From contig JBJEGC010000022.1 in NCBI GenBank assembly GCA_051874695.1, forward strand, positions 5,895 through 69,894: a stretch of 64,000 nt of DNA, given 5' to 3'. The notes beneath the pieces were generated by a model, which had not been told where the DNA came from, ran no database searches, and was given only the letters and a program-made list of their open reading frames with translations. Numbering within the stretch: position 1 is the stretch's first letter; each line of letters opens with the position of its first letter. Position numbers and translations under genes: made by a program. Of the stretch, positions 22,169 through 43,369 are shown piece after piece. The stretch comes from Candidatus Bruticola sp. Lineage in GTDB: Bacteria; Vulcanimicrobiota; Xenobia; Xenobiales; Xenobiaceae.

Positions 22169-22210
22169 AAGAAGGGATTATGCTAATGTAATCCCTTCTT
22201 TTTTTTTATT
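22169..22210 (+). terminator. rho-independent terminator after pilA
   Basis: AAGAAGGGATTA-TGCTAATG-TAATCCCTTCTT hairpin plus T9. Confidence 0.7.
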
Positions 22211-22298
22211 TTATTGGTGCCATGCTTTTTTATTGACACCCTTTAAAGTTTGTTTTAACCTTTACAGAATTGCAACTAACCAGGAGCGTACTCTCTTT

Positions 22299-23189: not shown

Positions 23190-23364
23190 ATGAGAGTTGG
23201 CAGGGGTTTTCTTTAGATAATCGAACTGCAGAAACTCTCTATAGGTGTATCTTATTTAGGTTGGGGGGCCCTTGGAGGTTTTTCACGAACTAAGAAGAAA
23301 GACTGCGGTATAGCAACTGGGAGTTAGTGCGCTCTCACGGCTTTTTTGGGAAGAAGGGGTTTGT

Positions 23365-24486: not shown

Positions 24487-24544
24487 GTTTGCAGCGCGGG
24501 CTTGGCGAGCTTAGTCGAGCTGATACTCCAAAGGGAGGTGCACG

Positions 24545-25183
24545 ATGACCATCAAGGTCAACCTATTGCCTACTGAGCGTAAGAGGTTTACTTTCGACCC
24601 GCTGGTCGCAGTTTTGTTTGTGTGTGTCTGCGCCGCGCTGGTTGGTTGCATAGTTTGGGGGTCCCGTCTGCAGCAAGATGTAGACGCTACTCAAGCTAAG
24701 ATCCAGCGGCTAGACGACGAGATCAAAAAAACGGAGCAGAGTCTGCCCGTTATTGATGAGATCAAGACGCAGATTGCCAAACTAAAAGGTGAGATTAAAG
24801 TTATCACCAGTTTGAAATATGATCCGGTTCGGTATGCAAATCTCTTGACTGAAGTAGGAAAGGTCTTACCAGAAAATGTATGGCTAACTAGTTTGTCCGT
24901 TGAACCTTCGACGACTGCCGTTACTATGAGCGGTGTTGCCGTTCCTCGCCCCGGCAAACCCCCGTTAGCTACCGTGGCTGAGTTTATACAGAAGATGGAC
25001 AACTCTAAAATTTTTACAGAGTCTTCCTTGTCTTCAACTTCCCAGACTAGGGTTGATAATTCTGGTGTAGGCTTTACTTTCCAAATTGAAGCTCGTTACG
25101 ACGCTGATACTGCCGCCGGTTTAGCTGAGCAGCAGACTGCTGGAGCTTCAAAAGACGTTTCATCCAGTGAAACAGAATCTTAA
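24545..25183 (+). CDS. pilN: type IV pilus assembly protein PilN
   Basis: The N-terminus MTIKVNLLP is the conserved PilN INLLP motif. Single TM plus a coiled coil. GGGAGG RBS. Confidence 0.75.
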   Translation: MTIKVNLLPTERKRFTFDPLVAVLFVCVCAALVGCIVWGSRLQQDVDATQAKIQRLDDEIKKTEQSLPVIDEIKTQIAKLKGEIKVITSLKYDPVRYANLLTEVGKVLPENVWLTSLSVEPSTTAVTMSGVAVPRPGKPPLATVAEFIQKMDNSKIFTESSLSSTSQTRVDNSGVGFTFQIEARYDADTAAGLAEQQTAGASKDVSSSETES

Positions 25184-25192
25184 GGAGGTACG

Positions 25193-25864
25193 ATGACTAT
25201 AAATACACCTATTAAAATCGTCGTAGCCTTCGTAGTAATCGCACTCATTGTTGTTATGTTCTGGTTGTTTGACTGGAAAGATAAAACAGAGCAGATCGAA
25301 CAAAACAACAACAAAGTAGCAGAACTTGAAGTCAAATTAGAGGAACAGCGCAAGCTGGTTGCCGATTTGCCTGCTCTTACCAAAGAGAAGAATGAATTGG
25401 ACCAAGAGCTGGCTCGTGTCGTCCAGACCAATCTCGTTCCTGAAAAAGCCGAGCTCTTTGTTGCTAACTACATCAAAGAGATCGAAAAGCTGACCCAGGA
25501 AGAAGGGTACCGTACTGGTGATGATTCCTTTGAAATTATCTCCATTACCCCTGGTGCTCTGACTTCACAGGCTGCACAAGGTTCCGATGCCGGCAACACT
25601 GAAGCTGCTGAAGAAGACGAAGGCGTTGACGCTACTCCCGATGCTCTTAAGCAGTTCCCGACCCGTATGTTCCAGATGACTATGAAGGGCAGATACTCTA
25701 CCCTGATCGAGTTCCTCTATCAGTTGGGTGATCTCCGTTTAGAGCGTTTGGTTACAATCGACAAGATTGCGCTGCAGCCTGAAAATAAAAAAGAAGGCGA
25801 AGCTGGTAATCCCGTCTTGACGATCCAAATTCCCATCACAGCTTACATGAGACAGGGAGGTTAA
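25193..25864 (+). CDS. pilO: type IV pilus assembly protein PilO
   Basis: Single TM plus a coiled coil, positioned after pilN. AAGGAGG RBS. Confidence 0.65.
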   Translation: MTINTPIKIVVAFVVIALIVVMFWLFDWKDKTEQIEQNNNKVAELEVKLEEQRKLVADLPALTKEKNELDQELARVVQTNLVPEKAELFVANYIKEIEKLTQEEGYRTGDDSFEIISITPGALTSQAAQGSDAGNTEAAEEDEGVDATPDALKQFPTRMFQMTMKGRYSTLIEFLYQLGDLRLERLVTIDKIALQPENKKEGEAGNPVLTIQIPITAYMRQGG

Positions 25865-25873
25865 AGAAAAAAT

Positions 25874-26638
25874 ATGAACCTGCCTGAATTTGGCTCAAAA
25901 TTGAACAAGGGTTGTAAAATTTTCGCTCTCTCTCTGGCTATGTTAGCTTGCGCCGCTTGCGGTGGAGGAGAGACTGCTGATGATTCTCCCAACTCTCCGG
26001 TTAGCAGTGAAGTAGAAGTTGCTGAAAATGCCGGCGGCGATGCCTCTGGCGGAAGTGCCGTCGAGAATCCGGGCGCTTCTTCTGAAGGTGGTGCCGAGGT
26101 AACTGATGCCGGTGTGGCCAGCTCTGGTGAGGGTACCGGAGATGGTACCGTCGTTGAGCCTGCTGCCGATGAAGGCGCAGCTGCTTCGTCTAATAAGGCT
26201 GCTTCTGAGAAGAAGCCCGCTCCTGCAAGACGCAAAGTTGCCGTTCGTGACCCCTTCCTTAACACGGCATCAGGTCCCGTTGTGGTTTCTAACGCCAGTC
26301 TTGCCAAGATGTCGGCTGCTCAAAGAGCTGCTTTACAGAGAAGTCAGAAGAAAGCTGTAACGAACACTTCTGCTAAAAAAGCCAAAGCTGCTAAAAAGGT
26401 CGTAAAAGTCGTTAAGCCCAATATCATGGTCAATGGTATTTTGAGAGGCAGTAATGGTTACGAAGCCATGATTAGCGACGGCACTCAGACCCGCTTGGTG
26501 GCGGTCGGTCAGAGAGTTGATAAGTATCGCATCTTGGGAATCGATCCTAAGACAAACACTGTTACTATCGGTCTCGGCAAAGAGCATAAGTTCCGCTATA
26601 CCTTGGAAAAAGAGCAGTTCGGAGACGCTAAAAAATAG
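25874..26638 (+). CDS. PilP-like lipoprotein
   Basis: Lipobox LAMLAC/AACGG. Low-complexity Ala/Glu/Ser-rich linker. A C-terminal beta-rich domain lies immediately upstream of the secretin gene. Confidence 0.5.
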   Translation: MNLPEFGSKLNKGCKIFALSLAMLACAACGGGETADDSPNSPVSSEVEVAENAGGDASGGSAVENPGASSEGGAEVTDAGVASSGEGTGDGTVVEPAADEGAAASSNKAASEKKPAPARRKVAVRDPFLNTASGPVVVSNASLAKMSAAQRAALQRSQKKAVTNTSAKKAKAAKKVVKVVKPNIMVNGILRGSNGYEAMISDGTQTRLVAVGQRVDKYRILGIDPKTNTVTIGLGKEHKFRYTLEKEQFGDAKK

Positions 26639-26878
26639 CTCATCTTCTGGATAAAATGTCAGTCTCTTTTGAAAAATTGAAAATAATAAAAAGCACGGCC
26701 AGGCTTTCGAGGGTGTCTGTCCGTTTGCAGGAAGGTCTACCTAATTAAGAAAGGGGCGCACATATTGCTTTGCGCGTGCTTTCCAAATGGTGGATCGCAC
26801 CCTCGGAATGAAACTTATGGTTTCAAGTAATTAAGTTCTTAATTGAACGTGATGGCCAATAGGAGGTGGGTAAAACCA

Positions 26879-28867
26879 ATGCTCTTGTCCAAGCGTAGAA
26901 GCATTCAGCTTCTGTTTGCATGCCTGATGGCCGTGGGACTATTTTTGTCTTCGTCCATGGCAGTGACAGCTCAAGGCAATGCTGCAACTATTAACGGCGT
27001 CAATTACAGCCTAGATAATTCCAAAGGTCTTATCAAGGTAGTAGCTGATACCACTGCACCAGTTCAGTATAAACAGTTGAAGTCTGACAACGCCATATGC
27101 GTTGAAATTTCTCCCGCTGTTGTCGGTAAAAATGTAAAACGCAGCCAGAATATTAATACTGGTTTGCTTCAGAGTATCGTTGTCGCTCAGACTTCTGCTA
27201 ACGTAGTATTAGTTCGCATGAATGTCAGCGGCACTCCCAAGACCAGCTATTGCACCGCTTTGGCGGAGAATAAGGGCGTCTCTGTCGCTTTCTCCAAAAA
27301 CGAAGTTGCTAGTGCGAAAGTAGCGAAAGCACCAGCTGCTGATACTGTAGCTAAAGCCGGAAGCAATGTAGCTCCTCGTAAAGTCGCTGCGCCCGCTAAG
27401 AAGGCCGCTGCTGCTAAGAAGGTTGCTCGCAAGCCCGTTGCCAACAGAGTCAAAGTTGTCAATATGGAATTTGTCAACGCTGACCTCGTTTACATCGTAA
27501 AGTTCCTTGCTAAGGAAATGGGACGTAACGTCTACGTCGGTCCCGATGTACAGGGCTCTGTTACCGTAACTTTGAAGAATGTTCAGCCCGAAGGTGCTTT
27601 GGCTTTGGTTCTGAAAATGCAGGAAACTCCTTATGACTACAAGATCGTTGACAACACCGTAATTGTAGCCACTTCCGAGAAGCTGCAGACCATTGCTGAC
27701 AACATTCTTACTCCCAAAACCAAGTCCAGCTCCGTCAGGAAGAACCTCTCCGAGCAGGAATTCGTTCTTGAAGCTGCTCCCGCCGCTAACATTATTGAGT
27801 TCTTGAAGGGTCAGTACCCCGACGTAGTTTTCACTCCCCATCCCACTATTAACGGTTTCTATGCTAAGGGCACTCAGCAGGAACTCAGAGAGATCAAGAG
27901 CAAGCTCCCTAACCTCGATCAGGTTCCCGCTCCTCCGCCAGCTCCTCGCCGTGAGTACATCACCGTCAACTATGGTAAGGCTGAAGAAATTCAGACCCTC
28001 ATCAAAACCTTGGTTCCTGATATTACTCTTAACTTAGACAAGCGCATGGGCATCCTCGTTGTTGAGGGTACTGATGAGCAGATCGAACAAGTTCAGGAAG
28101 TGTTGGCTAATATTGACAGACCCTTAAAGCAAGTCATGTTAGACTTCAAGGTCGTTGAGCTCAACGAAACCGGTTCTAAGAACTTAGGTGTACAGTGGAG
28201 TGATGACGCCGGTGCTATGGGTGTATTCAACACTACCTTCGCTGAAATCGTTCCTTCCTTATTCTACGGTGCCGATCGTCACATGATCACCAACGAAGAG
28301 TTCGACCTTGGTGAAGACACCAGCGATTTGACCGCTTTCAACCTCGGTACTTTCGGCCGTTCCCCTCTCTTAATTAAAGCTTCTCTCTCCTTCGTGGTAG
28401 AGAACAGCGATTCCAAAACCTTAGCTTCTCCTCGCATTGCTACTCAGAGCGGTGAGAAAGCCGAAGTTTATGTGGGTCAGAGATATCCTATCGTATTCTA
28501 CGATCCTCGTGCCGGTCAGTTCCAGGTTCAGTATGTTGATATCGGTACTAAGTTGGAAGCTACCCCTGAAGTCAAGGATGACGGCCACGTAGTGGTTGAG
28601 CTCACTCCTACCACTTCCAGCGCTGGTAACTTGGTAAACAACCAGTATCCTATTACTTACGAGCGCACTGCTAAGTCCAAAGTCCGCGTCAAAGACGGTG
28701 ACACCATCGTTCTGGGCGGTCTGATCAGTGACAGTGAGAAACACTCTGTCTCCAAGCTCCCTCTCTTAGGCGACCTTCCCGTCATCGGTGCTTTGTTCCG
28801 CTACGAGAGCCACAGCTCAGACAGAAGCGAAGTCGTATTCATGGTCACTCCTCATATCATGGACTAA
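26879..28867 (+). CDS. pilQ: type IV pilus secretin PilQ
   Basis: Signal peptide, N-domains, and a C-terminal secretin domain (...IVLGGLISDSEKHSVSKLPLLGDLPVIGALFRYESHSSDRSEVVFMVTPHIM). AGGAGG lies upstream. Confidence 0.85.
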   Translation: MLLSKRRSIQLLFACLMAVGLFLSSSMAVTAQGNAATINGVNYSLDNSKGLIKVVADTTAPVQYKQLKSDNAICVEISPAVVGKNVKRSQNINTGLLQSIVVAQTSANVVLVRMNVSGTPKTSYCTALAENKGVSVAFSKNEVASAKVAKAPAADTVAKAGSNVAPRKVAAPAKKAAAAKKVARKPVANRVKVVNMEFVNADLVYIVKFLAKEMGRNVYVGPDVQGSVTVTLKNVQPEGALALVLKMQETPYDYKIVDNTVIVATSEKLQTIADNILTPKTKSSSVRKNLSEQEFVLEAAPAANIIEFLKGQYPDVVFTPHPTINGFYAKGTQQELREIKSKLPNLDQVPAPPPAPRREYITVNYGKAEEIQTLIKTLVPDITLNLDKRMGILVVEGTDEQIEQVQEVLANIDRPLKQVMLDFKVVELNETGSKNLGVQWSDDAGAMGVFNTTFAEIVPSLFYGADRHMITNEEFDLGEDTSDLTAFNLGTFGRSPLLIKASLSFVVENSDSKTLASPRIATQSGEKAEVYVGQRYPIVFYDPRAGQFQVQYVDIGTKLEATPEVKDDGHVVVELTPTTSSAGNLVNNQYPITYERTAKSKVRVKDGDTIVLGGLISDSEKHSVSKLPLLGDLPVIGALFRYESHSSDRSEVVFMVTPHIMD

Positions 28868-29393: not shown

Positions 29394-32300
29394 GTGACTT
29401 ACGTGGCTGATACCATTGAAGGGTTGATGCAGGAGGCCCGAGCGTTCGCTGACAGCAGAAGCTGGGACCAAGCCATAGAGAGTTATTCCAGAGTAATAGA
29501 TCTGGATGCTGATAATGATGAGGCTTGCCGAAGCTTGGCTAATATCTACGCTTTGCGTGGAATGTTTAAGTCGGTAATAAGTACCTATCTGCGGTTGATG
29601 CACATCTATGTTGCGCGCAGTGACATGGATAATGCGATGGCTGTGGCTAACTATGTGCTCCTTTTAGAACCGGCGTCCATTGATGTCCGCTCTGAGCTCA
29701 TAAATATGTATCGCTATCGCGGGGATACAGCTGAGGTTGTGTCGCGCTCGCTCGATTTAGCTCGCCTTTATACCGAGTTAGACGAGGGGGATCGCTCTAT
29801 TGAACTTCTTCAGGCCGTCTTAAACGACGATCCGAATAATGCTGACATCTGCCGCGAACTGGCCGAAATGTATATTCAGTACGGTCAAGTAGAGCGCGGT
29901 GCCAGCCAGTATCATCAAGTCGCTGATTTGTATCAGGCGAACGGTCAGCTTGACAAAGCTTGCGATGCTCTAGAGCGAATTCTGGTTGTAAACAGCGGCG
30001 ATTCCGGCGCAGTATTCCATCTGGGAGAACTTTATTCCATGATGGAACGCTGGGAAGATGCCGAAAGGCAGTTCCGCAGCGCTCTTAAATTTGACTTTGA
30101 AAATCTCGATGTCATGTTCGCTTTGGGCAATGTTTGTCAGCGCAAAGGAGACTTGGACCAAGCCAGTTTAGCATATCGTAAGATAGTCATGATTGCTCCC
30201 GACTATGTCTTGGCTCAAGAACGCCTCGGCGAAATTTACCATATGCAGAACAACATAGAGCTGGCCATTAAGGCTTACCTTACGGCTGGTGGTCTCTATG
30301 TACGCAGTAACGACTCTGAACACGCCATAGCGCTTTATCAGCGCGTCATTTTCCTCGATCCCAATAATCCTGCTGCTACCCGTGAACTTACCAACTTGGG
30401 AGCTCCTGTCGTCGGTAACGATGGTGGTATTCAGCCTCTCGTTAAAAATAAGGCTGCAACCAAGTCTTCCCGATCTGAGTCACGCCGCGAGAAGAAAGAT
30501 GGAGAGCGTAAAACTCGCAGCGGTTTGCTTCCTAAGGGAGGCGGTGGTGTGCGCTCTGGTCTGGTTGCCAAAGGTGGCGGCTCCAAGCCTGGTTTAGGCG
30601 GAAAGCCCGTACTTGGTGGCGATGGTGAGGCTGAAGGTGCGCCGCGTCCGGGCTTAATGCGCGCAGGCTTGAAAGCTTCCGGAGGAGGTAAGCCCTCTTT
30701 AGGAGGCAAGCCTATGCTCGGTGGCAAGCGCGTTTTGGGTAGTCGTAAGAAGAAGGCTGAAGAGGCTAAAGAAGAGGCTCCTGTTGAGCATACTGCTATT
30801 AGCTTGGCTAAAGAGCCTGAAAACGATCAGAGTGCTGCTGTAGAAAATGTTGCCGCGAATGATGGTGAAGTTCAGGCCGCCGAAGTTGTAGCTGTAGAGT
30901 CCGGCGTAGATGAAGTAATGCCTACGCCAGAGCATGTTGAATCTTCAGAGTCACAGCCAGAAGTAGGAACCGTAGCTGAGGCCGTTCCAGAAGTAGGAGC
31001 AGCTATACCTGAGTCTGCGGGTGATATTCATTCCGAAATGACTCCGGAGCATAACCCGGAAGCTTTTTCCGCTTCCGAACATCAGGTTCCGCTCGAAGAT
31101 AACATTTACGCCGATGGAAACCAGCAGTATGTCGGGGAAGATCAACAATTCGGCGGTGATATGCAGCAATATGCTGGTGAAGCCCATCAGTTCGGCGGTG
31201 ATATGCAGCAGTATGCCGGTGAGGCTCAGCAGTTCGGCAATGATATGCAGCAATATGCCGGTGAAGTTCAGCAGTTCGGCAGTGATATGCAGCAGTATGC
31301 TGATGATTCTCAACAGTTCGGTGGTGACATGCAGCAGTATGTCGGCGCGGAGCAAGGCCAGGGTCATGAGTATTATCAGGAACCTTATGCTGCCCAAACT
31401 GGAGAATTCTACGGAGAGCATGCCGATGGAACCGGCCATTTTGAGCAGCCTACCGAATCTCACGAAGCTTATTACCAGCAGGAAGGAACTGCGGCTGAAT
31501 ACGGAGAGCAGCACCAGTACGAAGATGCTGCTTACGGTGGGGAAAACTACTCTGATAACGGTTACGGATTCGATATGCACCGTCCGCTTATCATGGTGCC
31601 CGAGGGCGAACTGATTGTACCTGCTCCTATACTTTATTTAGAGCGCACCGATCTGTACGAGGCTATTTGCCAGGCAATCACCGAGGTGCCGGATCCTTCG
31701 GTTATTCCGTGGGAACCTCTGCGTGTTATCGATGAAGCTGCTATAGAAGAGAAGCTGGCTCAACAGAGTGCTGAAGCTGCCAGAGCCGCGGCCGAGGCTG
31801 AGGAAGCTGCCAGAGCTGAGGCTGAGAAAGAACAGGCCGCTTCTAGTTCAGTGGAAGGTTTCGACTTCAGCGGTGGCGTTAACCTCAAAGGGGTTTCCGG
31901 GACTGGACTTCGCCGCAAATATTCTAAAGGTGAGTCTAAAGGCAGCTCGTCTTCAGGACGTTCCCGTCTTAGCGGCAATCAATCGCTTTCAGAGCGTGTG
32001 GCCCGCATGCGTGCGGAGAGCGCTGAACTTGAAGAAAGCGCTTCCGAGCATCGCGCCATTAGTGGTATCAACCGTCATCATCAAGATAAGTCTCAGAAGA
32101 AGGAGAAAGGCCGCTCGATTGTTGGCGGTATCTCCAGACCTATTAACCAAGTTATTGAAGAAGCCAACCAAGCCAACCAAGCCAATGGCACTGCTCCTCA
32201 AACTTATGCCGATCAAGCTCCTGAGATTCCTCGTCCCGAACTCACAGCCACGCGTTCTCGCAGCAGTTTGAGTGAACGTATTAAGAGGGCCAGACAATCG

Positions 32301-35300
32301 AAGGCTGCGGCTAAAGTTCAGGCTGAAGAGGTCAACGCGGAGCTTTCTGCTCAGTCTGTAGAACAGCCTGTTGCTGAATTCGACGGCAATGCTTATCAGG
32401 CTGAGTCTCAAGAAGCGGTCAACACTTCAGCGGCCTCAGCAGAATATGGTGCACCTACTGCTCCGGATGGGCAGTTAAGCGGGGAATATGAAGCTTATCA
32501 AGCTGCCGAGCAGGCGGCAAGTGACCCGTCTGCTTCCGAGCTTGGTCTTGCTCAGGTTGCTGTCGGCGCTGTAGCCATTGGAGCTGTCGCTGCTGCTAGT
32601 TCGGCTGTAGCCGACAATCTCGACGATCTCACTCAGGGCGAATATCCAATTGAATCTGGTGCTGAAGCAGAGCAGCTTGGCGGTCAGTACGGTGCCTATC
32701 CTGAAGCGGAACAGGCTAACGAAGGAGAGCAGCTTGGCGGTCAGTACGGTGCCTATCCCGAGGCTGGGCAGGCTGCCGAAGGAGAGCAGCTTGGCGGTCA
32801 GTACGGTGCCTATCCTGAGGCTGAACATGCTGCCGAAGCAGAGCAGCTTGGCGGTCAGTACGGTGCCTATCCCGAAGCTGAACATGCTGCCGAAGCAGAT
32901 ACTTCCGGCGTTGGTTTAGCCAAAGTTGCCGTAGGTGCTGTGGCCATAGGTGCTGTGGCTGCTGCCAGTTCTACCGTTGCTGACAATTTCAGTGGTGCTG
33001 AATTATATGCCGACACTGCGGCTGAGGAGCTGCTTGGAGAGCAGTATGGCGGGGGTGAAAACGTCGAAGCCGAGCCTGCTGCTGTCGTTGAAGAAGAACA
33101 GTTGGGCGCTCATTATAGCGCTTATCCCGAAGCTGAACCTGCTGCCGAAGCAGATACTTCCGGCGTTGGTTTAGCTAAAGTTGCTGTTGGTGCTGTGGCT
33201 ATAGGTGCTGTAGCTGCGGCTAGTTCTACTGTGGCAGACAATTTCAGTGATGCTGAGTTGTACACTGAGGCTGTGTCTGAGGAGCAGTTTAGCGGTCAGT
33301 ACGAGGCTGAGCCCGTTGAAGCTGAACCTGCAGCCGCTGAAGCTGAACAATTAGATGGAGATTACGGAAACTACGCAGATGCAGTTGAGCAGGCTGTTAA
33401 TTCTGGCGTAGGCTTAGCCAAAGTTGCCGTAGGTGCTGTGGCTATAGGTGCTGTGGCTGCTGCCAGTTCTGCTGTGGCTGATAATTTTGGCGATTTAGAG
33501 CAGTATGCATCCTATCCCGATGCAGATGGTGCTCCTGTGAGTGAACCTGTCGCTCAGATAGAAGATCGTCAATTGAATAAGGCAAATGCGAATCCGTCAA
33601 GAGACGTGGCAGAGGAAGTTCAGTCGGTGGAGACTCCTGTCGCCGTTGCCGATGAACTTGATACTTCTTCTAACGATGACAATGCTCAGGTGGTAGAGCT
33701 CGATGAAGCTGGAGCTTCAATGATTGAATTCGTTGAAGTTGACGACGATCGAACCGATGTTCCTGAGATAGTACTTAACGAGCCCGATGAAGTTGCTACT
33801 CCTACTAAGGTTAAAGTTCCCGTTCGCATAAAACGTAGAAAACGCCGCAGCGCTCCTGTTATCGAGCAAATCGAAGAAGTAGAAGAAATTGAGGCTGATC
33901 TCCCTCAAGGAGACGCTGGTTCGGATGCCTCTTCCGGCGTAGGGTTGGCTAAAGTTGCCGTCGGTGCCGTAGCTATAGGTGCTGTGGCTGCTGCCAGTTC
34001 AATGGTCGCGGATAACTTTGCTGCGAATGCTTCCGAACTTTACCAACAGGATGCTCAGTCTGAGTTTATTGAAGCTGAGAATATTCATGAAGAAAGTGCT
34101 GTAGCTGAAGCTGAACCTGAAGAGGTGCAGCCAGAGCCGGAACCTGAGCCGGTTGGCGATGAGCTTTGCTCGCTTTCTGTAGAATCTGAACTGCCTCCGG
34201 AATACTTAAAGGAAGCTCAGCGTCTGCGTGACAAGTTGGTGGGAGCCGATGTTACTACAGCTATAGGTGATTACCGTCGGGCTATTGAGAATTCTCCCGA
34301 AAACTTAGTGCTGCGTACCGATTTGGCTGATGTTCATTTGCGGTTCAGCTTAATGGATGACGCTATTAATCAGTATCGTCAAATTCTGCGCCGTAAACCC
34401 GACTCTGTGGCTTTGCGCCATCGTTTAGCTTGTGCTCACTTGTGGAACGAAGATTTCGATGAAGCTATAAAAGTGTATCTCGATTTGGCTGAACTGCATA
34501 CTCAAAACGAACAGTATGCTGATGTAATCGATGTTTTGCAAACTGTTCTCAGCCTCGATCCTCAACACTTTAAGGCTCGTCGTCTCCTTATTGATCGCTT
34601 TATCGCTCAGGGTAAAGTCGATTTAGCCACTCATCATCTGCGTCAGTTCGTGGATGCTGCTCTCTCTTTAGGTAGCGTAGATAATGCCATCTTCGCCCTT
34701 AAGCAACTTATAGAACTCTCTGATGATCCTGCTTTCGTAGAGCGTCTGGCTAAAGTTTACGAAGAACATGACAATGTCAGTGAAGCCATCTCCTACTATC
34801 AAATTCTTTCTGAACGCTACAGAAAGGAAGAAAAGTGGAGTGAAGCTTTGGCCGTCTGCAGCAAGTTGGTTGCTTTAGAGCCGGACAATTTTGACGAGCG
34901 CCGCCTGCTGATCAGTCTGTATCAGAATCTGGGCCGTTACGATAAGGCAATGGCTGAACAGTTCCATCTGGCCGGACTTTACAAAGAGCAGAACTCCATG
35001 GATGAGGCTGCTGAACTTTACCAGTCGATTGTAGACAAAGATCCTGGTCACTATGCCGCTCGTCGCTGCTTGGTTGACTGCTACCTGAGTAAGGGCAACC
35101 TGCAGGCTGCTATGATGCAAGTTGCTCCTTTAACCGAGCGTTACAGATCTGAGCGTCTCTTCGAGCAGGCTATTGAAATGTATAGAAGCTTGGTCGAGGC
35201 CGATCCGAGTTCTGTAGATTTGCGTGAAGAGTTGCTGGCCTTCTATACCATGGGAGAACAGCGCGAGAATATGCTCAGTGAGCTGCTCACTCTTAACGAA

Positions 35301-36065
35301 ATTCATGAAAACAAAGGCGAGTACAGAGATTCGGTTCGTTACTTGCGCCGCGCTATCGAGTTGGCGCCGGATCGTGCCGATCTGCACTGCCGTCTGGCTA
35401 AGCTTTATGATGAGCAGTTGCAAAGCATCAGTGGAGCTATGCAGGAATACAGAAAAGTATTCGAGCTCAATCCAGGTGATGCGGAAGCTATGAGCCGCTA
35501 CGCTCAGCTTTTGGTATCCCAGCGCAAGCCCAAAGAAGCTGCAGCCGTCCTGCTTAAATTGCAATCAATTAATAAAGAAGTTGGTAAGCAGGCCATCAAC
35601 ACCATCTGCAAGTCCTTCTTGGACAAGATCGCTCAAGACGGTGCTGATTTAGCTACCAGATATAGCTATGGAGAGCTGTGTTACTACCTCAACCGCATTA
35701 GCGATGCTATCGAGCAGTTCCAGAAGACTCATGCCGACAGAGACTTAGAGCTGCGCTCCCGCAACATGTTAGGTTTGTCCTTTATAAAGATGCCTCGTAT
35801 GCGTGAAATGGCTATCCGTCAGTTCCGCTTAGGTCTTGATACTAAAGGACATGCGGAGCAAGATTACCTCGAGCTGCGCTATAACTTGGCTATGTTGTTC
35901 TACCAGACCGACCGCCTCCAAGAGGCTCTGACCGAATTCAAGAGCATTTTGGCCTTTGACATTACTTACCGCGATGTCGAAGCCAGAGTTAAAGATTTGC
36001 AGGCTAAGATCGCTGCCGGCGGAGGCGCTTCTAAAGGCAGAGGCGTTCCTCCCCGCCGCAAATAG
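29394..36065 (+). CDS. giant (2223 aa) TPR protein with repetitive disordered centre and five repeated hydrophobic segments
   Basis: Single uninterrupted ORF. TPR-like units occupy the N-terminal ~330 aa and the C-terminal ~600 aa. The centre is Gly/Lys-rich, then Gln-rich 14-aa repeats, then acidic EQLGGQYGAYPEA repeats. It holds five copies of GVGLAKVAVGAVAIGAVAAASSxVADNF. Confidence 0.7.
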   Translation: MTYVADTIEGLMQEARAFADSRSWDQAIESYSRVIDLDADNDEACRSLANIYALRGMFKSVISTYLRLMHIYVARSDMDNAMAVANYVLLLEPASIDVRSELINMYRYRGDTAEVVSRSLDLARLYTELDEGDRSIELLQAVLNDDPNNADICRELAEMYIQYGQVERGASQYHQVADLYQANGQLDKACDALERILVVNSGDSGAVFHLGELYSMMERWEDAERQFRSALKFDFENLDVMFALGNVCQRKGDLDQASLAYRKIVMIAPDYVLAQERLGEIYHMQNNIELAIKAYLTAGGLYVRSNDSEHAIALYQRVIFLDPNNPAATRELTNLGAPVVGNDGGIQPLVKNKAATKSSRSESRREKKDGERKTRSGLLPKGGGGVRSGLVAKGGGSKPGLGGKPVLGGDGEAEGAPRPGLMRAGLKASGGGKPSLGGKPMLGGKRVLGSRKKKAEEAKEEAPVEHTAISLAKEPENDQSAAVENVAANDGEVQAAEVVAVESGVDEVMPTPEHVESSESQPEVGTVAEAVPEVGAAIPESAGDIHSEMTPEHNPEAFSASEHQVPLEDNIYADGNQQYVGEDQQFGGDMQQYAGEAHQFGGDMQQYAGEAQQFGNDMQQYAGEVQQFGSDMQQYADDSQQFGGDMQQYVGAEQGQGHEYYQEPYAAQTGEFYGEHADGTGHFEQPTESHEAYYQQEGTAAEYGEQHQYEDAAYGGENYSDNGYGFDMHRPLIMVPEGELIVPAPILYLERTDLYEAICQAITEVPDPSVIPWEPLRVIDEAAIEEKLAQQSAEAARAAAEAEEAARAEAEKEQAASSSVEGFDFSGGVNLKGVSGTGLRRKYSKGESKGSSSSGRSRLSGNQSLSERVARMRAESAELEESASEHRAISGINRHHQDKSQKKEKGRSIVGGISRPINQVIEEANQANQANGTAPQTYADQAPEIPRPELTATRSRSSLSERIKRARQSKAAAKVQAEEVNAELSAQSVEQPVAEFDGNAYQAESQEAVNTSAASAEYGAPTAPDGQLSGEYEAYQAAEQAASDPSASELGLAQVAVGAVAIGAVAAASSAVADNLDDLTQGEYPIESGAEAEQLGGQYGAYPEAEQANEGEQLGGQYGAYPEAGQAAEGEQLGGQYGAYPEAEHAAEAEQLGGQYGAYPEAEHAAEADTSGVGLAKVAVGAVAIGAVAAASSTVADNFSGAELYADTAAEELLGEQYGGGENVEAEPAAVVEEEQLGAHYSAYPEAEPAAEADTSGVGLAKVAVGAVAIGAVAAASSTVADNFSDAELYTEAVSEEQFSGQYEAEPVEAEPAAAEAEQLDGDYGNYADAVEQAVNSGVGLAKVAVGAVAIGAVAAASSAVADNFGDLEQYASYPDADGAPVSEPVAQIEDRQLNKANANPSRDVAEEVQSVETPVAVADELDTSSNDDNAQVVELDEAGASMIEFVEVDDDRTDVPEIVLNEPDEVATPTKVKVPVRIKRRKRRSAPVIEQIEEVEEIEADLPQGDAGSDASSGVGLAKVAVGAVAIGAVAAASSMVADNFAANASELYQQDAQSEFIEAENIHEESAVAEAEPEEVQPEPEPEPVGDELCSLSVESELPPEYLKEAQRLRDKLVGADVTTAIGDYRRAIENSPENLVLRTDLADVHLRFSLMDDAINQYRQILRRKPDSVALRHRLACAHLWNEDFDEAIKVYLDLAELHTQNEQYADVIDVLQTVLSLDPQHFKARRLLIDRFIAQGKVDLATHHLRQFVDAALSLGSVDNAIFALKQLIELSDDPAFVERLAKVYEEHDNVSEAISYYQILSERYRKEEKWSEALAVCSKLVALEPDNFDERRLLISLYQNLGRYDKAMAEQFHLAGLYKEQNSMDEAAELYQSIVDKDPGHYAARRCLVDCYLSKGNLQAAMMQVAPLTERYRSERLFEQAIEMYRSLVEADPSSVDLREELLAFYTMGEQRENMLSELLTLNEIHENKGEYRDSVRYLRRAIELAPDRADLHCRLAKLYDEQLQSISGAMQEYRKVFELNPGDAEAMSRYAQLLVSQRKPKEAAAVLLKLQSINKEVGKQAINTICKSFLDKIAQDGADLATRYSYGELCYYLNRISDAIEQFQKTHADRDLELRSRNMLGLSFIKMPRMREMAIRQFRLGLDTKGHAEQDYLELRYNLAMLFYQTDRLQEALTEFKSILAFDITYRDVEARVKDLQAKIAAGGGASKGRGVPPRRK
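31130..31350 (+). repeat. in-frame tandem repeat, ~7 x 42 bp (DMQQYAGEAQQFGG)
   Basis: Near-identical 42-bp units are visible in the sequence. Confidence 0.8.
32541..34020 (+). repeat. five dispersed copies of an ~80-bp unit encoding the hydrophobic segment GVGLAKVAVGAVAIGAVAAASS(A/T/M)VADNF
   Basis: Copies start near 32541, 32907, 33163, 33406 and 33936. The peptide is conserved, while the DNA differs at many synonymous positions. Confidence 0.8.
32665..32885 (+). repeat. in-frame tandem repeat, 4 x 60 bp (EQLGGQYGAYPEAEQAxEG)
   Basis: Almost identical 60-bp DNA units. Confidence 0.8.
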
Positions 36066-36103
36066 TGGAACTCTTAAGCGCCTTTATTGGAATCGGAGAA
36101 AAA

Positions 36104-39100
36104 ATGACAGATCGTAGCAATATGGAGTCCCTTATTCAGCAAGCCGATGATTTAGTTGGCGCTGGTAATTGGGAAGAGGCCCGAGAAATATATAAGCAAG
36201 TGGTCAGTCAGGACCCTAATAACGTGGAAGTGCGCGAACACGTGCTTGCATCTGCAAAACGAGCATTGGCTTTCCAGGTTATTATCGGCCAGGATATGGC
36301 TCTGGCTGAGCTCTTTGCGGCTAACGGTGAAGCTGAGAAAGCTATCGATAGCTACAAAGATATCCTTAATTTAGAGAAGATGGCTCAAAGTCAGGGTATC
36401 AGTGGTGCCCAGCTGAGTGAAATTCAGAACTTAGTGGCTCAGGTTAAGCCGGAAATTTTCGCTAAAACCGGTACTATTTATCTGAATGAAGGCCGCTACA
36501 TGGAAGCCATTAAGTGGTTGCGGCCCAGTTTAGATTTGGATCCTAGCCGTTGGGATACGCATATGGCTATGGGACGCGCCCTGATGATGGACAACAAGAA
36601 CAAGGAAGCCATTTCCGAGTTCCAAGAAGTTGTTCGTTTGGCCAGTACTGAAGCTGCTAGTGCTTATGAACTGCTGGGTGAGGTCTTCCTGCGTATTGGG
36701 CGCTCTCCGCAGAACACGATCGTTTGGTTCCGTAATGCAGGTGAACTTTTTGTGCAGCGCAATGAGTTTACCGATGCCATTAGAGCTTATGAGCGTATTT
36801 TGCAATTTGAGCCTCGCAACAAAGATATTCTAGTTCGCTTAAGTGACATCTATACCGCCGAAGGCTATACCGAAAAAGCTTGTGCTGCTTACTTTACTCT
36901 GGCTCAAATTTTTGAGGAAGAAGGCTTCTCCGACAAAGTAATGAGTTACTTGGAGAAGACAATTGAGTTCAATCCTGCTGATGATGAAGCCAGAACGAAG
37001 CTGATCGCTATTTATGGCGAAGCCTTGGAAAACGATCCCTCCAATGTTAGTCTCAGAGTTCGCCTCATTGAGAATCTCCTTAAAAAAGGCATGTTTTCTG
37101 AAGCGGCGGAAAATCAGCTCGAACTGGCCAAGATCTATATCGACAAGGGCAGCATAGATGACGCCATCGCCACTTTGCGCAAACTTATCGATATTGAGCC
37201 GGATAATATTGAGGCCCGTCGTTTACTGGGCGATCAGTACCGGCGCAAAGATATGGGTACTGAGGCTTTGTCTGAGTATCAGGAAGTGGTACGCCTGTAT
37301 CAAGAGAACGGCTTTGCCGATGAGGCTATTGAGTTCCAACATCAGCTGGTCGAGATGTTCCCCGAAACTTCGGATTTGCGCTATCAAGTTGCTTTGTCTC
37401 TGCGCAGTCAAGGCAACCATGAGGGGGCTGTCAGAGAGTTGGACCGTCTGGTACGCAGCAATCCCGATGACATGATTGCCATGAACTATCTGGCTGAGGA
37501 GTATGCGGCTTTAGGCCATTGGGATAAGGCCATAGGGGCTTACCATGAGATACTTAATCATGATCCTGCCCGCTACGATGTGCGCAAGCGTTTAATTAAG
37601 TATTACGTTGAGCAGAGCTTTTATGAAGAGGCTATGGCGGAGATTCGTTTACTGCCTGATGACGACTTTGAAAAGAGAGCTTTTGCTTACAAGATCATTG
37701 AGCGCTGTTTGGAAGAAAACCGCACCGACGAAGCTGAAGCTTATATTCATGGTCTTGAGCCGGATGACGAACGTCTGGTTTCGTTCCACAAAGAGCTGCT
37801 TAAACGTTACCTCGATTTAGGAGAGCTTGTTCAGGCTGACAGGGTTGTAACTTTAATTCCTCGTTCTGATAAAGAACGTAATAAGTTGATTACTCGCCTG
37901 ATGGAGTTGTATCTTGGCGCCTCCAATATGGAAAGTGCAGTAGCGTTGATCGATCGTTTGCCTGACGACGATTCCCTGCGCCTTTCTTTTCAGCGTCGCC
38001 TGATTAATTCTTATCAAGAGATGGGACGCTTTGAAGATGCGGCTACTGAAATGGCGAAGCTTCCTCCCGGCGATGAGTCTTATCACGATTTCTCCATGCG
38101 TCAGATCTCCGGTCTTATGCAGTCTGGCAGACTCAACGATGCCATGAACTGCATCAAAGAGCTCAGTGAAGACGACCCTGCCCGCAACTCCTTTATGGGG
38201 CAGCTTATAGAAGCTTATTTGCAGGATGGCAATATCGATAAAGCTGCTCAGGAAGTGGCCGGTCTCCCTCCGAAGACTGAAGTTTGTTCCAGATATATGC
38301 GCCGCATTATTCAGGCCTATTTGAATAATAACCGTTTTGAAGAAGCTGAGCGCGATATTATGCTTCTCGATTCTAACGATCCTGAGAAGCTGTCGTTCTT
38401 GCGTATTTTGCTCCAAAAGTACGAAATTAACGGTTTAGTAGATAACCTTAGAGAGCTTGTGGTTAAGTTGCCTGACGGCATGCCTGAAAAGCAGCAGTAT
38501 CTGGACGGTATAGTGCATTCTTTCTTGACTGCCGGCAATATGGCGAAGGCGCGACAAGAAATTTACAGTTTAGCCGAGACTGTGTCGGAAAAAGGCAATC
38601 ACTTAGAAGCGGAGCGTCTCTATTCCGATCTTTTGGCTTACCATCCCGTCGATGTAGAAATCAGGATGCGGTTGTGCCAAGAAGTGGCTGCTCAAGGTAA
38701 GTTAGAGCGTGCTTCTGAAGGATTGTTGGTGTTGGCCGGACGTTTCCGTAAAGAGGGCAATGCTACATCGGCGGTAGACATTTATACTCGTCTTTTAGAA
38801 ATTGATCCGGGTAATCTCAATGCTCGCTACCGTTTGGGTGAAATTTGGGCTCAACATGGCCAGACTGCTCAGGCTTTAGAGCATTTCTCTTTCCTGGCTA
38901 GTGAGTATTTGCGGCAGAACTTGAATGAGGTCGCTCAAAAAGTTTTGCATCGCATTCTCGATTTGGACAGTAAGGACATTGTTCACCGCCGTCAGCTTAT
39001 CACTTTGTTGGCCAGAAACATGCGTCTGGAAGAAGCCATAGAAAATTATCGGGTTCTTTTGGGCATACATCTGGACAGGGGAGAGCTCGAAGAAGCTTTG

Positions 39101-40519
39101 ACTTGCGTGCGTGAAGTCAAGCTGCTGCAGCCTTTGAATTTGGAGCTCAGCCAGTGTTTGGGCGCTATGTTCCTGAAGGCCGGTTACTTAGAAGAAGGAC
39201 AGCAACTGCTGGAAGAGCTCATTCCTGCTTACAAAGGGCGCTCCGATCATGAAAACGTGGTTAAAGTGTTCCGAACCCTTTCTGAAGCCTTCGATGCTAA
39301 TCAGCAATGGGAAGCTGCTTTGGAGTATTTGGAGCGTGTTGGTGACGAACAGGTTGAGGCTGATGAGTGGAGGGAAGCTCAATCCAACTATTTGAAGGCC
39401 TTGGAAGAGTACTTGCGCCGTGGACGTCGAGAGTACACGGATACTCTCTTTGTTAAGTTGATTGACGGTTTCTTCCGTCATAAGAACGTCAATGAGGGTG
39501 TAGAGCTGCTGAAGGAAGTTGAGGAGCGTTTCGTTAGGGCGGGTCGAACCGATTTAGCTCTGATCGTAAAAGATCGCCTGGCTTCTATCATGGAGCGGCT
39601 TGAAGAATGGAGCGAAGCTCTCGATGTGGTCATTCTGATTGCTGATACCAACTTGGAGCTGGGGGATGTCGAGCAGGGTATTGCTTACTATCGTCGCGGC
39701 GTCGATTTGGCTGTCAATCATGATATGACCGAGCGCGGCGTTGAGCTGGCTTTCAAAATGGCCGACTTACTCATTAACTATCGGGGCATTGAGGCAGCTC
39801 GTCCGATTTTCGATGAGGTCAGGGTTTACGATAACCAGTCTCCGGAAACCATTGAGCGCATTGCCGATATTATGTTTGAGCGTGGTTACCGCGGTGAAGC
39901 TTGCCCTATCTACAAGGAAGTTTTGGAGTTAGAACCTGGACGCGCTCAGTCTCTTTCCCGCGTGTCTATTATTTACGCCTTAGAAGGTAAACTGGAAGAA
40001 GCGGCCGGCTTGGCTCGTCAGATATTCGCGAAGGGACTCGTTGGCAAAATCACTGAGGAATACGGCAAAGCTCTTTGCTGCAAGCCAAACGATGCCGTTT
40101 ACCACATTAAAATGGGCGAATTCTTTAGGCAGCTTGGTTTCTTGGAAGAAGCTATCGATGAGTTCCATAAAGCTATTACCGATCCGGCTAAGGTTTTGGT
40201 CGCAGTTAATGGTTTAGCTATGGCCTTCCAAGAAAAGGGCTACCGTGACTTAGCTATTAAACAGCTGCAGAAAACCATGGAACAGCCTGGTTTCAGCGAT
40301 GAAGAACTCCTCGATCTGCGCTATAATTTAGCTATTATTCTCCAGGCTGAAGGCCGCTACGATGACGCCATTCAGGCTTTCCAAGAGTGCTACGCCGTAG
40401 ATATTAAGTACCGTGATGTATCTGAGCGCTTGAGTGAACTCTTTGAAAAGGTTGGAGACGGAGTGCCAGGTGAGGGCAGTGGTTACGATGATTACTACTA
40501 TTTCGAAGGAGAGGAGTAG
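36104..40519 (+). CDS. giant all-TPR protein (ORF-track length 1484 aa; ~1471 aa from ATG 36104)
   Basis: TPR-like 34-aa units run throughout, with no TM segment. The ATG at 36104 has GGAG 5 nt upstream. The ORF-track start (GTG 36065) overlaps the upstream stop, so the two genes are translationally coupled or co-transcribed. Confidence 0.7.
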   Translation: MTDRSNMESLIQQADDLVGAGNWEEAREIYKQVVSQDPNNVEVREHVLASAKRALAFQVIIGQDMALAELFAANGEAEKAIDSYKDILNLEKMAQSQGISGAQLSEIQNLVAQVKPEIFAKTGTIYLNEGRYMEAIKWLRPSLDLDPSRWDTHMAMGRALMMDNKNKEAISEFQEVVRLASTEAASAYELLGEVFLRIGRSPQNTIVWFRNAGELFVQRNEFTDAIRAYERILQFEPRNKDILVRLSDIYTAEGYTEKACAAYFTLAQIFEEEGFSDKVMSYLEKTIEFNPADDEARTKLIAIYGEALENDPSNVSLRVRLIENLLKKGMFSEAAENQLELAKIYIDKGSIDDAIATLRKLIDIEPDNIEARRLLGDQYRRKDMGTEALSEYQEVVRLYQENGFADEAIEFQHQLVEMFPETSDLRYQVALSLRSQGNHEGAVRELDRLVRSNPDDMIAMNYLAEEYAALGHWDKAIGAYHEILNHDPARYDVRKRLIKYYVEQSFYEEAMAEIRLLPDDDFEKRAFAYKIIERCLEENRTDEAEAYIHGLEPDDERLVSFHKELLKRYLDLGELVQADRVVTLIPRSDKERNKLITRLMELYLGASNMESAVALIDRLPDDDSLRLSFQRRLINSYQEMGRFEDAATEMAKLPPGDESYHDFSMRQISGLMQSGRLNDAMNCIKELSEDDPARNSFMGQLIEAYLQDGNIDKAAQEVAGLPPKTEVCSRYMRRIIQAYLNNNRFEEAERDIMLLDSNDPEKLSFLRILLQKYEINGLVDNLRELVVKLPDGMPEKQQYLDGIVHSFLTAGNMAKARQEIYSLAETVSEKGNHLEAERLYSDLLAYHPVDVEIRMRLCQEVAAQGKLERASEGLLVLAGRFRKEGNATSAVDIYTRLLEIDPGNLNARYRLGEIWAQHGQTAQALEHFSFLASEYLRQNLNEVAQKVLHRILDLDSKDIVHRRQLITLLARNMRLEEAIENYRVLLGIHLDRGELEEALTCVREVKLLQPLNLELSQCLGAMFLKAGYLEEGQQLLEELIPAYKGRSDHENVVKVFRTLSEAFDANQQWEAALEYLERVGDEQVEADEWREAQSNYLKALEEYLRRGRREYTDTLFVKLIDGFFRHKNVNEGVELLKEVEERFVRAGRTDLALIVKDRLASIMERLEEWSEALDVVILIADTNLELGDVEQGIAYYRRGVDLAVNHDMTERGVELAFKMADLLINYRGIEAARPIFDEVRVYDNQSPETIERIADIMFERGYRGEACPIYKEVLELEPGRAQSLSRVSIIYALEGKLEEAAGLARQIFAKGLVGKITEEYGKALCCKPNDAVYHIKMGEFFRQLGFLEEAIDEFHKAITDPAKVLVAVNGLAMAFQEKGYRDLAIKQLQKTMEQPGFSDEELLDLRYNLAIILQAEGRYDDAIQAFQECYAVDIKYRDVSERLSELFEKVGDGVPGEGSGYDDYYYFEGEE

Positions 40520-42013: not shown

Positions 42014-42907
42014 TTGTATATCCCTAAAGGCAACATATTAATCGAAGACGTAGAGTTGTCGTATGACAATATGCGCGAAATGCAGGCTAACTTATCCAAT
42101 GACGGCTTCACCGGCTATGTCAAGTTAGACTTAGAAAATTCTTCTGCTTATGTTTTTTATGATAATGGCACTGTGGTCCAGGTTTTAGAGGTTGATAACG
42201 CAACTAGTCTGGTTAGTTTGCAATTGGAACAGCGCCTTCTTAATCGTATTAAGCTCGACAACATAAAATGCTCTAGCTACGTGACTTCTAAGCGTATTGT
42301 CAACGTACTGACAGGTATTTTTGCCTTCCAACCTCTTTATCTTGATTATGAAGCCAAAAAGCGTGATATGCCTCGCATTTTGGAAAAACTCCAAGATGGA
42401 GGTTACAGTGGTCTAATGAAGCTGTCTACTCGTGAGGGTACCTATTATTTGGCAATCGATAATGGCGATATTGTGCGCGATCGTTTTTGCTACAACTATG
42501 GGGAAGTTCTCAGTGGTACCGAGGCTATCGATCGCATACTCAATTTTGAGTTCGATAGCGAAGGAGCCACTATGAGCATCTTTGCTGAGCGCGTTGAAGA
42601 GATCGACATTAAGCGCAGTGCTAAAGAAGAGGAACTTGAGAAGATCAAGACTCTGATTGTCAAATCTGATGGCGGTTTCCTGCGGGCTAACGATGTTGTC
42701 AAAGTTGATAACTATATTGTGCGCGAGTGGAATATCGCCGATATTAAGTCTACTTTCTCTGTCGAGATTGAAACTCCGGACGGCTCTCTCTATGAATACA
42801 GATGTCAGGCCGGTTCTAAGTTCGGCGATCGTGCCGGTTTAACGCCTGCCATGATGAAGAAGATGGGATTAGCTGAAGGAGATAATATCTCTATTCGTCC
42901 TCTGTAA
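42014..42907 (+). CDS. protein with two DUF4388-like domains
   Basis: Two segments fit the DUF4388 pattern G.L....L..L......G.L.L......YF.DG.IV. They are GNILIEDVEL...DGFTGYVKLDLENSSAYVFYDNGTVV and ILEKLQDGGYSGLMKLSTREGTYYLAIDNGDIV. The TTG start has GGAGG 8 nt upstream. The domain call relies on recalled family patterns. Confidence 0.45.
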   Translation: MYIPKGNILIEDVELSYDNMREMQANLSNDGFTGYVKLDLENSSAYVFYDNGTVVQVLEVDNATSLVSLQLEQRLLNRIKLDNIKCSSYVTSKRIVNVLTGIFAFQPLYLDYEAKKRDMPRILEKLQDGGYSGLMKLSTREGTYYLAIDNGDIVRDRFCYNYGEVLSGTEAIDRILNFEFDSEGATMSIFAERVEEIDIKRSAKEEELEKIKTLIVKSDGGFLRANDVVKVDNYIVREWNIADIKSTFSVEIETPDGSLYEYRCQAGSKFGDRAGLTPAMMKKMGLAEGDNISIRPL

Positions 42908-43009
42908 ACTTAATGATGCCGGTGCCTCTCTCTATGAAATTTTTTCTGATTAGGGAGGCCCCCGGCTTCTGGCTCCATGAAATAATAGGTGTTTGGAAGG
43001 AGAGAGAGC

Positions 43010-43369
43010 ATGTCTCAACTGACATCTCTGCTGCAAAGTTTTCAGCGTTTAGATGGGGTTCTGGGCGCTTGTATTCTGAGCAAAGATTGTGAAATATTGG
43101 CGGAAAATTTAAACGATTCGGTCAAAAATGATGTCGCAGCCGTTTCTTTTAAGGAGTTCTTGCCTAAAGTAGAAGCTCTCGTGTCCGGATTGGGCGTTGC
43201 CGGGGTTGACAGGCATCATCTGATTCTCGATGATAAACAGCTTATGATAGAAGTTTTAGTCGGCGGGGCTATGCTGGTTGTTTTTACCAGCAGCGACAAC
43301 AGCAATCAAGGGCGCGTGCGCTTAGAGATTCGCAAGAGCAAAAAGAATATAGAAGCAGCTTTGGCTTAG
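43010..43369 (+). CDS. Roadblock/LC7 (MglB-like) domain protein
   Basis: About 119 aa with the roadblock pattern LDGVLGACILSKDCEILAENL...AAVSF...LGVAGVDRHHLILDDKQLMIEVLVGGAMLVVFTSSDNSNQGRVRLEIRK. AGGAG lies 7 nt upstream. Confidence 0.6.
   Translation: MSQLTSLLQSFQRLDGVLGACILSKDCEILAENLNDSVKNDVAAVSFKEFLPKVEALVSGLGVAGVDRHHLILDDKQLMIEVLVGGAMLVVFTSSDNSNQGRVRLEIRKSKKNIEAALA

Follow-up and report, generated by a model that had tools for sequence, protein, structure and literature searches.

Five near-identical apolar peptide units are found in a giant tetratricopeptide repeat (TPR) protein that is encoded beside the type IV pilus genes of Candidatus Bruticola sp. The DNA studied here, referred to as the window, is a stretch of 64,000 nucleotides from contig JBJEGC010000022.1. 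Candidatus Bruticola is an uncultured, gut-associated bacterium of the class Xenobia in the phylum Vulcanimicrobiota (Eremiobacterota). It is strongly supported that purifying selection acts on the unit peptide and that the five copies do not stem from recent duplication. We favor, at a probability of roughly 0.45, the reading that the units are apolar, helix-prone interaction modules, conserved at the protein level, in a cytoplasmic pilus scaffold with two TPR blocks. We infer that the units lie in the cytoplasm, that they are helical and that they bind a partner or self-associate.

A first-pass annotation of the window had described five near-identical segments in a 2223-residue TPR protein. 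This description holds, and all five are in the open reading frame (ORF) at 29394..36065 of the forward strand, which is 6.67 kb long and codes for 2223 residues. The segments, 20-28 residues long, follow the pattern (G)VGLAKVAVGAVAIGAVAAASSxVADNF and sit inside the acidic middle of the protein. As 28-residue units, all on the forward strand, they comprise unit 1 (ELGLAQVAVGAVAIGAVAAASSAVADNL, 32538..32621), units 2 and 3 (both GVGLAKVAVGAVAIGAVAAASSTVADNF, 32907..32990 and 33162..33245), unit 4 (GVGLAKVAVGAVAIGAVAAASSAVADNF, 33405..33488) and unit 5 (GVGLAKVAVGAVAIGAVAAASSMVADNF, 33936..34019). Units 2-5 consist of GVGLAKVAVGAVAIGAVAAASS followed by one variable residue (T, T, A and M in that order) and VADNF, while both termini of unit 1 deviate (ELGLAQ...VADNL). 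All five units share VAVGAVAIGAVAAASSxVAD, which varies only at x. The core is formed by three pentads, VAVGA-VAIGA-VAAAS, and is rich in the beta-branched residues Val and Ile. It is held in a polar frame, with S-G-V-G-L-A-K ahead and V-A-D-N-F behind. The linkers are acidic, as the earlier annotation had also stated, and the first three inter-unit loops contain 16-22 Asp plus Glu (D+E) against a single Lys or Arg (K+R) each. The loop between units 4 and 5 is the only one rich in Lys and Arg, with 14 K+R. The layout of the units is signal-peptide-like, in that Lys is followed by an 11-residue apolar run and then by AAA and SS, an AxA-type site; the regions upstream of the units are acidic.

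That the peptide is fixed while third codon positions vary, and that this reflects purifying selection and not recent duplication, had been proposed from the sequence at first sight. Codon alignment of the units agrees with both statements. The window copies are 68-90% identical to one another at the DNA level. By the Nei-Gojobori method, the proportion of synonymous differences (pS) between them is 0.29-0.81, with about 24 synonymous sites in each comparison, whereas the proportion of non-synonymous differences (pN) stays within 0-0.04 for copies 2-5 and reaches 0.09-0.13 in comparisons with copy 1. An internal control is provided by units 2 and 3, which share one 255-nt block duplication. 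The flanks within this block differ at pS 0.39 and pN 0.17, and the unit at pS 0.42 and pN 0.00. The 20-codon core was compared over ten copies, five from the window and five from a second Candidatus Bruticola genome (isolate LOHA09_bin.039). At least 37 synonymous changes were found vs 3 non-synonymous changes, all three of them at x. Outside position x, the count is at least 36 synonymous changes and 0 non-synonymous changes.

Other parts of the protein were compared with the second genome in terms of non-synonymous (dN) and synonymous (dS) substitutions per site. The N-terminal TPR block gives dN 0.015 and dS 0.67, the C-terminal TPR block gives dN 0.023 and dS 1.09, and the inter-unit linkers reach dN 0.2-0.3 and carry indels in addition. 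The synonymous distance between units of one genome can be smaller than that between positional orthologues. Window copies 2 and 4 (W2-W4) differ at pS 0.29, and window copy 2 and its counterpart in the second genome (W2-B2) at pS 0.67. This pattern suggests that some unit copies were turned over or gene-converted.

The unit has a narrow distribution. A degenerate DNA pattern for its 14-residue core was scanned over one genome per species (185,579 species) and was found in one other genome only, the LOHA09 genome mentioned above. The LOHA09 orthologue carries five units and is split over two contigs at repeats. Judging by their divergence, the window genome and LOHA09 are distinct species. When 1.84 billion representative proteins were screened with a profile of the unit, just two others matched, the LOHA09 fragment and a protein referred to here as P0122, and both are orthologues of the window protein. 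P0122 is a fragment from a third lineage. It contains one diverged unit, FAKVAVGAIAVGAVASASSTVAEE, at the position of unit 5, after a motif and patch of the MIEFVEVDDDRTDVPEIV/KVKVPVRIKRRKRRSAP type (described below). The third-lineage orthologue (locus L124, 4385-10709) has two runs of N inside its repeats, the gene is fragmented by gene callers, and further units may be hidden in the N-gaps. The unit and the central region have no meaningful sequence match in Pfam or the PDB, which together with these two other carriers agrees with the earlier view that the unit is undescribed. A looser DNA pattern was run on metagenome contigs, and the extended motif was present in none of the translated loci among the at least 120 matches listed. 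False positives of this search (L022, L023, L043, L049, L063, L091, and L105) show an unrelated (GAxAx)n run with a basic tail, mostly ...LAIGRARIRRLEIDE or ...IAIGQAEVKRL.

Presence of the unit does not follow the overall similarity of the orthologues. Identity to the window protein over the C-terminal TPR block is 96% for LOHA09, which has 5 units, 87% for 21 orthologues without units (P0002-P0022), about 76% for three more without units (P0023-P0025), and 67% for P0122, which has at least 1 unit. P0002-P0044 contain no 19-residue window with a Kyte-Doolittle mean of at least 1.6, and P0002-P0022 lack both a signal peptide and any hydrophobic segment. At the matching place, P0002-P0022 hold only VVSLAKVAD, ahead of VEPEAVA repeats of their own. 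This peptide looks like GLAKVA...VAD minus the apolar core, a resemblance that is not statistically significant. The first-pass annotation had considered that absence of the motif from all homologues, combined with topology predictions of soluble helices, would speak against its proposal; the motif is indeed missing in most homologues, and it is present in three lineages. Unit 5 is probably the ancestral copy because its position matches that of the single unit of the third lineage. In the simplest history, an ancestral unit at position 5 would have been amplified to five before the split within Bruticola and would have been lost in the sister lineages. Directly upstream of unit 5, at 33720..33857 on the forward strand, an acidic motif (MIEFVEVDDDRTDVPEIV) is followed by a basic patch (KVKVPVRIKRRKRRSAP). 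The two are common to the three unit-bearing lineages and are not found in the unit-less P0002-P0022 clade, so they may cooperate with the unit. Across the family, the middle is acidic and has short hydrophobic repeats that differ between lineages, among them GGLFD, EMAELP, and VEPEAVA.

The first-pass annotation judged the units long and hydrophobic enough for a transmembrane (TM) or glycine-zipper-like helix. For comparison, 51 TM-like segments were selected from the same window as controls, at a Kyte-Doolittle 19-residue mean of at least 1.6. The units reach TM-like means of 1.94-2.07 on this scale, and their mean Eisenberg hydrophobicity of about 0.65 is borderline. The simple Hessa sum lies between +1.8 and +2.4 for the units and has a median of +1.76 in the controls (n=51); it was dropped as an argument against TM helices because real polytopic helices of the window score similarly. 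The Wimley-White octanol energy separates the two groups, with +2.8 to +4.3 kcal/mol for the units and -1.7 to -15.6 for the 51 controls. The combined content of Leu, Ile, Phe, Met, Trp, and Tyr is 5% in the units, as compared to a minimum of 21% and a median of 47% in the controls. Within 15 residues of each unit there are 0-1 K+R and 2-5 D+E on either side. Between the Lys and the Asp of a unit lie 19-20 uncharged residues, and no residue of VAVGAVAIGAVAAASSxVA is charged. Glycines are at unit positions 1, 3, 10, and 15. Like glycine-zipper and GxxxG TM motifs, the units are rich in Gly, Ala, and Ser, with a stripe of small residues on one face of the putative helix. The core glycines are spaced 7 and 5 apart, which is not GxxxG, and the glycine zipper was rejected on this spacing. 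No Pfam glycine-zipper family was matched at E up to 10. An amphipathic membrane-targeting helix was likewise ruled out, by a hydrophobic moment of only about 0.05-0.1.

If the units were true TM helices, the chain would pass through the inner membrane five times and end with its C-terminal TPR block in the periplasm, opposite the cytoplasmic N-terminal one. The protein would then connect the two sides of the pilus machine as a polar scaffold of the PodJ type. This is unlikely in our judgment, although the arguments for it are several. The Kyte-Doolittle mean is about 2.05 over the uncharged run between Lys and Asp, the Hessa sum falls among the values of real polytopic helices in the window, and an N-in model would place the sole K/R-rich loop, the one joining units 4 and 5, on the cytoplasmic side. 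Both assembled lineages have an odd count of units (5 and at least 1), PodJ sets a precedent for a cytoplasmic disordered region, a TM anchor and a periplasmic TPR (PMC8980812), and a diderm envelope is known from the cultivated representative of the phylum (PMC9758169). Consecutive spans alternate in orientation, yet the flanks of the units are asymmetric and alike, which disfavors five spans. Positive-inside bias and orientation-dependent flanks are not seen, and three of the four loops carry one K+R against their 16-22 D+E. Octanol energy and composition fall outside all 51 controls, and AlphaFold2 predicts coil or a low-confidence helix. Topology would also not be conserved among close orthologues. 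The unit-less orthologues with 87%-identical C-terminal TPR blocks must lie wholly in the cytoplasm because they have neither a signal peptide nor a hydrophobic segment, and an odd number of spans in the window protein would shift the same TPR block into the periplasm. Octanol energy, composition, the uniformly acidic flanks and these segment-less orthologues together disfavor the TM helix of the earlier annotation. The units might instead be weak monotopic or peripheral anchors that dip into the cytoplasmic leaflet, with the avidity of five holding the scaffold near the pilus base. Marginal hydrophobicity, the uncharged 19-residue core and a uniform orientation that agrees with the identical flanks fit this proposal, as does the gene context, since a pilus-base scaffold must be near the membrane. 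It is nevertheless doubtful. The unit is not amphipathic and its core has no aromatic residues, the marked acidity of its flanks should work against contact with anionic bacterial lipids, a basic Gly/Lys-rich stretch kept throughout the family is a better candidate for lipid binding, and unit-less orthologues occupy the same gene cluster.

Two further explanations have less in their favor. The pentads and their wealth of beta-branched Val and Ile could make the units beta-prone Gly/Ala/Val blocks that zip into cross-beta contacts and yield a gel or fiber with acidic spacers, and the linkers have GGQYG-type motifs with regularly spaced Tyr and Phe. Such blocks would be akin to the poly-Ala or GA blocks of silk or to the GAV cores of amyloid-forming proteins. 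AlphaFold2 gave helix or coil and never strands, there is no alternation of large and small residues as needed for a two-faced strand, and the moment at 170 degrees is about 0.1, which makes this explanation quite improbable. Finally, the units could be a neutral by-product of low-complexity repeat expansion with no function of their own, given that the middle region evolves through tandem duplication and that close relatives have no units. The substitution pattern contradicts this and excludes it. No non-synonymous change outside x was found against at least 36 synonymous ones in the ten copies, flanks and unit within a single duplication block have pN 0.17 vs 0.00, and a diverged yet recognizable unit survives at 67% C-terminal TPR identity.

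The evidence against membrane spans favors, by elimination, a protein-interaction role for the units. In the AlphaFold2 model of the central 521 residues, computed from the single sequence, all five units are helical at low confidence and the rest is coil. In this reading, a scaffold that belongs to a type IVa pilus cluster would carry the units like beads along its disordered middle, which is acidic and evolves fast, and each unit would do an equal job in an equal orientation. Judging by the sequence and a helical wheel, a helix formed by the unit would display a continuous small-residue stripe, A-A-G-A-S-A, at alternating i+3/i+4 spacing, with Val and Ile alongside. Such a stripe would suit close helix-helix packing with other units, with a TPR groove or with another partner. 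Five equivalent sites would then make the protein a multivalent scaffold that clusters or cross-links at the base of the pilus machine. The acidic middles with short hydrophobic repeats seen across the family fit a sticker-and-spacer design. Several findings weigh against the interaction-module reading. The Kyte-Doolittle, Eisenberg, and Hessa values are each compatible with a membrane helix, and a uniformly apolar segment of 20 residues is unusual for a soluble linear motif. The unit helices of the single-sequence model have a predicted local distance difference test score (pLDDT) of just 30-50, and AlphaFold2 with an alignment leaves unit 5 as coil (pLDDT about 30), undocked on the adjacent C-terminal TPR block. 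AlphaFold2 modeling gave no support for docking in cis on the C-terminal TPR, and no binding partner was found for the units. Close relatives do without units, and any role of the unit is thus dispensable at the family level.

To our knowledge, type IV pilus machines need cytoplasmic organizers, few of which are understood, namely SgmX with MglA, FimV/HubP, and FimX. On the evidence of sequence, the unit motif is undescribed and limited to a few related lineages. The analysis brings out two giant TPR proteins that are conserved as a pair in the pilus cluster of Eremiobacterota/Vulcanimicrobiota. Within one genus, a reiterated apolar module was gained under very strong selection, and sister species are without it. 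This contrast of presence and absence is a natural experiment on what scaffold modules do, be it membrane tethering, clustering or partner capture. Self-associating helices, if that is what the units are, would offer a clear bacterial case of sticker-and-spacer design. If the units are membrane spans, a conserved domain would switch compartment between close relatives. The more far-reaching versions of these ideas, in which either five helical stickers form a condensate or gel at the pilus base, as a counterpart to TDP-43, or five inner-membrane spans carry a TPR superhelix on each side, have a rather low probability.

Several known proteins share parts of this design. SgmX of Myxococcus xanthus and Bd2492 of Bdellovibrio are cytoplasmic TPR activators of type IV pili (PMC7519303). 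SgmX is like the window protein in having TPR blocks at both ends, a domain-less middle and no signal peptide (PMC7519303). A link to type IVa pili is shared as well, which for the window protein is drawn from conserved gene order, and a Roadblock-like gene is located nearby. MglB, the partner regulator in Myxococcus, is a Roadblock protein. SgmX itself binds MglA-GTP and is required for PilB to localize to the cell pole. The window protein differs in being twice as long, with a 1250-residue acidic, repeat-rich middle, and in having five apolar units, whereas SgmX is reported without TM-like segments. Membership in the SgmX family (NCBIfam NF052243, T4PFormProtSgmX) was rejected, as the score of 33 bits against a cutoff of 1800 represents generic TPR similarity. 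FimV/HubP proteins resemble the window protein in a long, acidic, repeat-rich cytoplasmic region and a C-terminal TPR-type domain, and also in their association with polar type IV pili and a hydrophobic segment in mid-protein (PMC12918733). The window protein has five units vs one TM segment, and a large N-terminal TPR block. It was not assigned to FimV/HubP, as there is no LysM match in Pfam or NCBIfam, no signal sequence and no FimV-specific model among its 23 NCBIfam matches.

PodJ of Caulobacter has one TM segment, N-terminal coiled coils and a periplasmic peptidoglycan-binding domain, and it phase-separates in vitro (PMC8980812). The resemblance is that of a polar scaffold with a disordered cytoplasmic region, a hydrophobic anchor and a TPR C-terminal to the anchor, and PodJ has a role in pilus biogenesis (PMC8980812). 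PodJ was rejected as a family for the window protein, which has five units and not one, no peptidoglycan-binding domain that could be found, and no sequence similarity to PodJ. TPR pilotin lipoproteins were rejected too, with scores of 69.7 against a cutoff of 154 for pilW and 68 against 225 for Tgl, and with no N-terminal lipobox. The C-terminal domain of TDP-43 contains a conserved hydrophobic helix that drives self-assembly via helix-helix contacts (10.1101/640615; PMC12658102). This helix is the closest mechanistic precedent for the proposed role of the units. Both are short, conserved, Ala/Gly-rich, helix-prone segments within a fast-evolving, disordered low-complexity region. TDP-43 is eukaryotic, unrelated in sequence and has one copy vs five, and the analogy would extend to mechanism only.

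Outside its units, the TPR protein has several distinct regions. It is 100% identical to P0001, annotated at NCBI as 'MAG: tetratricopeptide repeat protein [Candidatus Bruticola sp.]'. GTG at 29403 is probably the true start codon, yielding 2220 residues as in the NCBI protein. The N-terminus, VTYVADTIEGLMQEARAF, was inspected by sequence and has no signal peptide, no lipobox and no hydrophobic character. The N-terminal TPR block (residues 1-345, 29394..30428, forward strand) is defined by Pfam TPR matches. It is followed at 30510..30755 on the same strand by the basic Gly/Lys-rich stretch, KTRSGLLPKGGGG...KPxLGGKPxLGG...GGKRVLGSRKKK, which is kept across the protein family and has a far broader distribution than the hydrophobic units. 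This stretch may bind lipid or a partner. The middle region of 1250 residues is acidic (227 D+E vs 81 K+R), consists mostly of tandem repeats and has no domain detected by a Pfam scan. Within its disordered part, five 14-residue tandem repeats rich in Gln, Tyr, and Phe (DMQQYAGEAQQFGG) occupy 31109..31350 on the forward strand with a period of 42 nt. They place an aromatic residue at every seventh position in Gln/Gly-rich acidic surroundings, and four such repeats are present in the second Bruticola genome. In composition they resemble a low-complexity 'sticker' region. Another motif, PLIMVPEGELIVPAPILYLERTDLYEAICQAITEVPDPSVIPWEPL, lies in the middle of the disordered region (31584-31721) and can be traced in orthologues down to about 58% C-terminal TPR identity. 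Between units 1 and 2, at 32660..32899 on the forward strand, there are about four acidic tandem repeats of 19 residues, EQLGGQYGAYPEAExxAEx. They are recent because the copies are 90% identical at the DNA level. The C-terminal TPR block (residues 1596-2207, about 610 residues, 34179..36014, forward strand) was modeled by AlphaFold2 with an alignment as one continuous, all-helical superhelix, with a pLDDT of about 90 (85-95) nearly throughout. A Foldseek search of the PDB with this model yielded long TPR scaffolds of a generic kind only, including Ctr9, Ski3, OGT, and IFT-A.

The gene is part of a conserved neighborhood. Upstream of it, at 16701..28867 on the forward strand, are pilB, pilT, pilC, a pilin gene, a prepilin peptidase gene, pilM, pilN, pilO, an ORF in the position of pilP, and the secretin gene pilQ. 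Downstream, a second giant TPR protein of 1484 residues is encoded at 36065..40519 on the forward strand, and the two genes overlap where the first has its stop codon and the second its start. The second gene is a conserved partner of the first by synteny in five loci (L125, L126, L127, L124, and L002). Its product scores 128 bits against NF052243 (cutoff 1800), which again is generic TPR similarity. Next is a predicted membrane protein (40434-41984) with about eleven 13-residue Pro/Lys-rich repeats, GFAPPKSPVSGPx. It is a conserved member of the cluster without a Pfam match, and the orthologue of one sister species has about six repeats. A DUF4388/PatA_N protein and a weakly Roadblock/LC7-like protein follow at 42014..43369 on the forward strand, both conserved downstream members of the cluster. 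The latter (42989-43369) is a weak match (E = 0.006) and is kept in the cluster across the phylum. Beyond it, a 552-residue protein (43443-45101) starts with a TPR, continues with an acidic disordered middle and ends in a region of Roadblock-like appearance. Taken together, the proteins at 42989-43369 and 43443-45101 may point to a polarity module of the MglB type; the scan, which covered part of the window ORFs, found no MglA-like GTPase.

The order pilBTC-pilA-pilD-pilMNOP-pilQ-TPR1-TPR2-unknown-DUF4388-Roadblock is kept around orthologues that are 87%, 42%, and 31% identical. In the third lineage, the TPR pair does not adjoin pilQ on a 15.9-kb scaffold (L124). Comparison of the neighbors in unit-bearing vs unit-less species gave no obvious co-varying partner, and the membrane protein at 40434-41984 differs mainly in its number of repeats. 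Going by gene order, the family of the first TPR protein is an uncharacterized conserved component of Eremiobacterota pilus clusters. Only one member of the phylum has been cultivated, a diderm bacterium that uses type IV pili to move (PMC9758169). The pilus cluster closes with a gene (45061-47577) that joins a Wzy_C membrane domain, of the O-antigen ligase-like type, to TPR repeats; the fusion is kept in relatives, and its product may glycosylate pilin. At 672-1175, roughly 20 kb upstream from the main pilin gene, there is a second pilin-like ORF whose N-terminus has a methylation motif.

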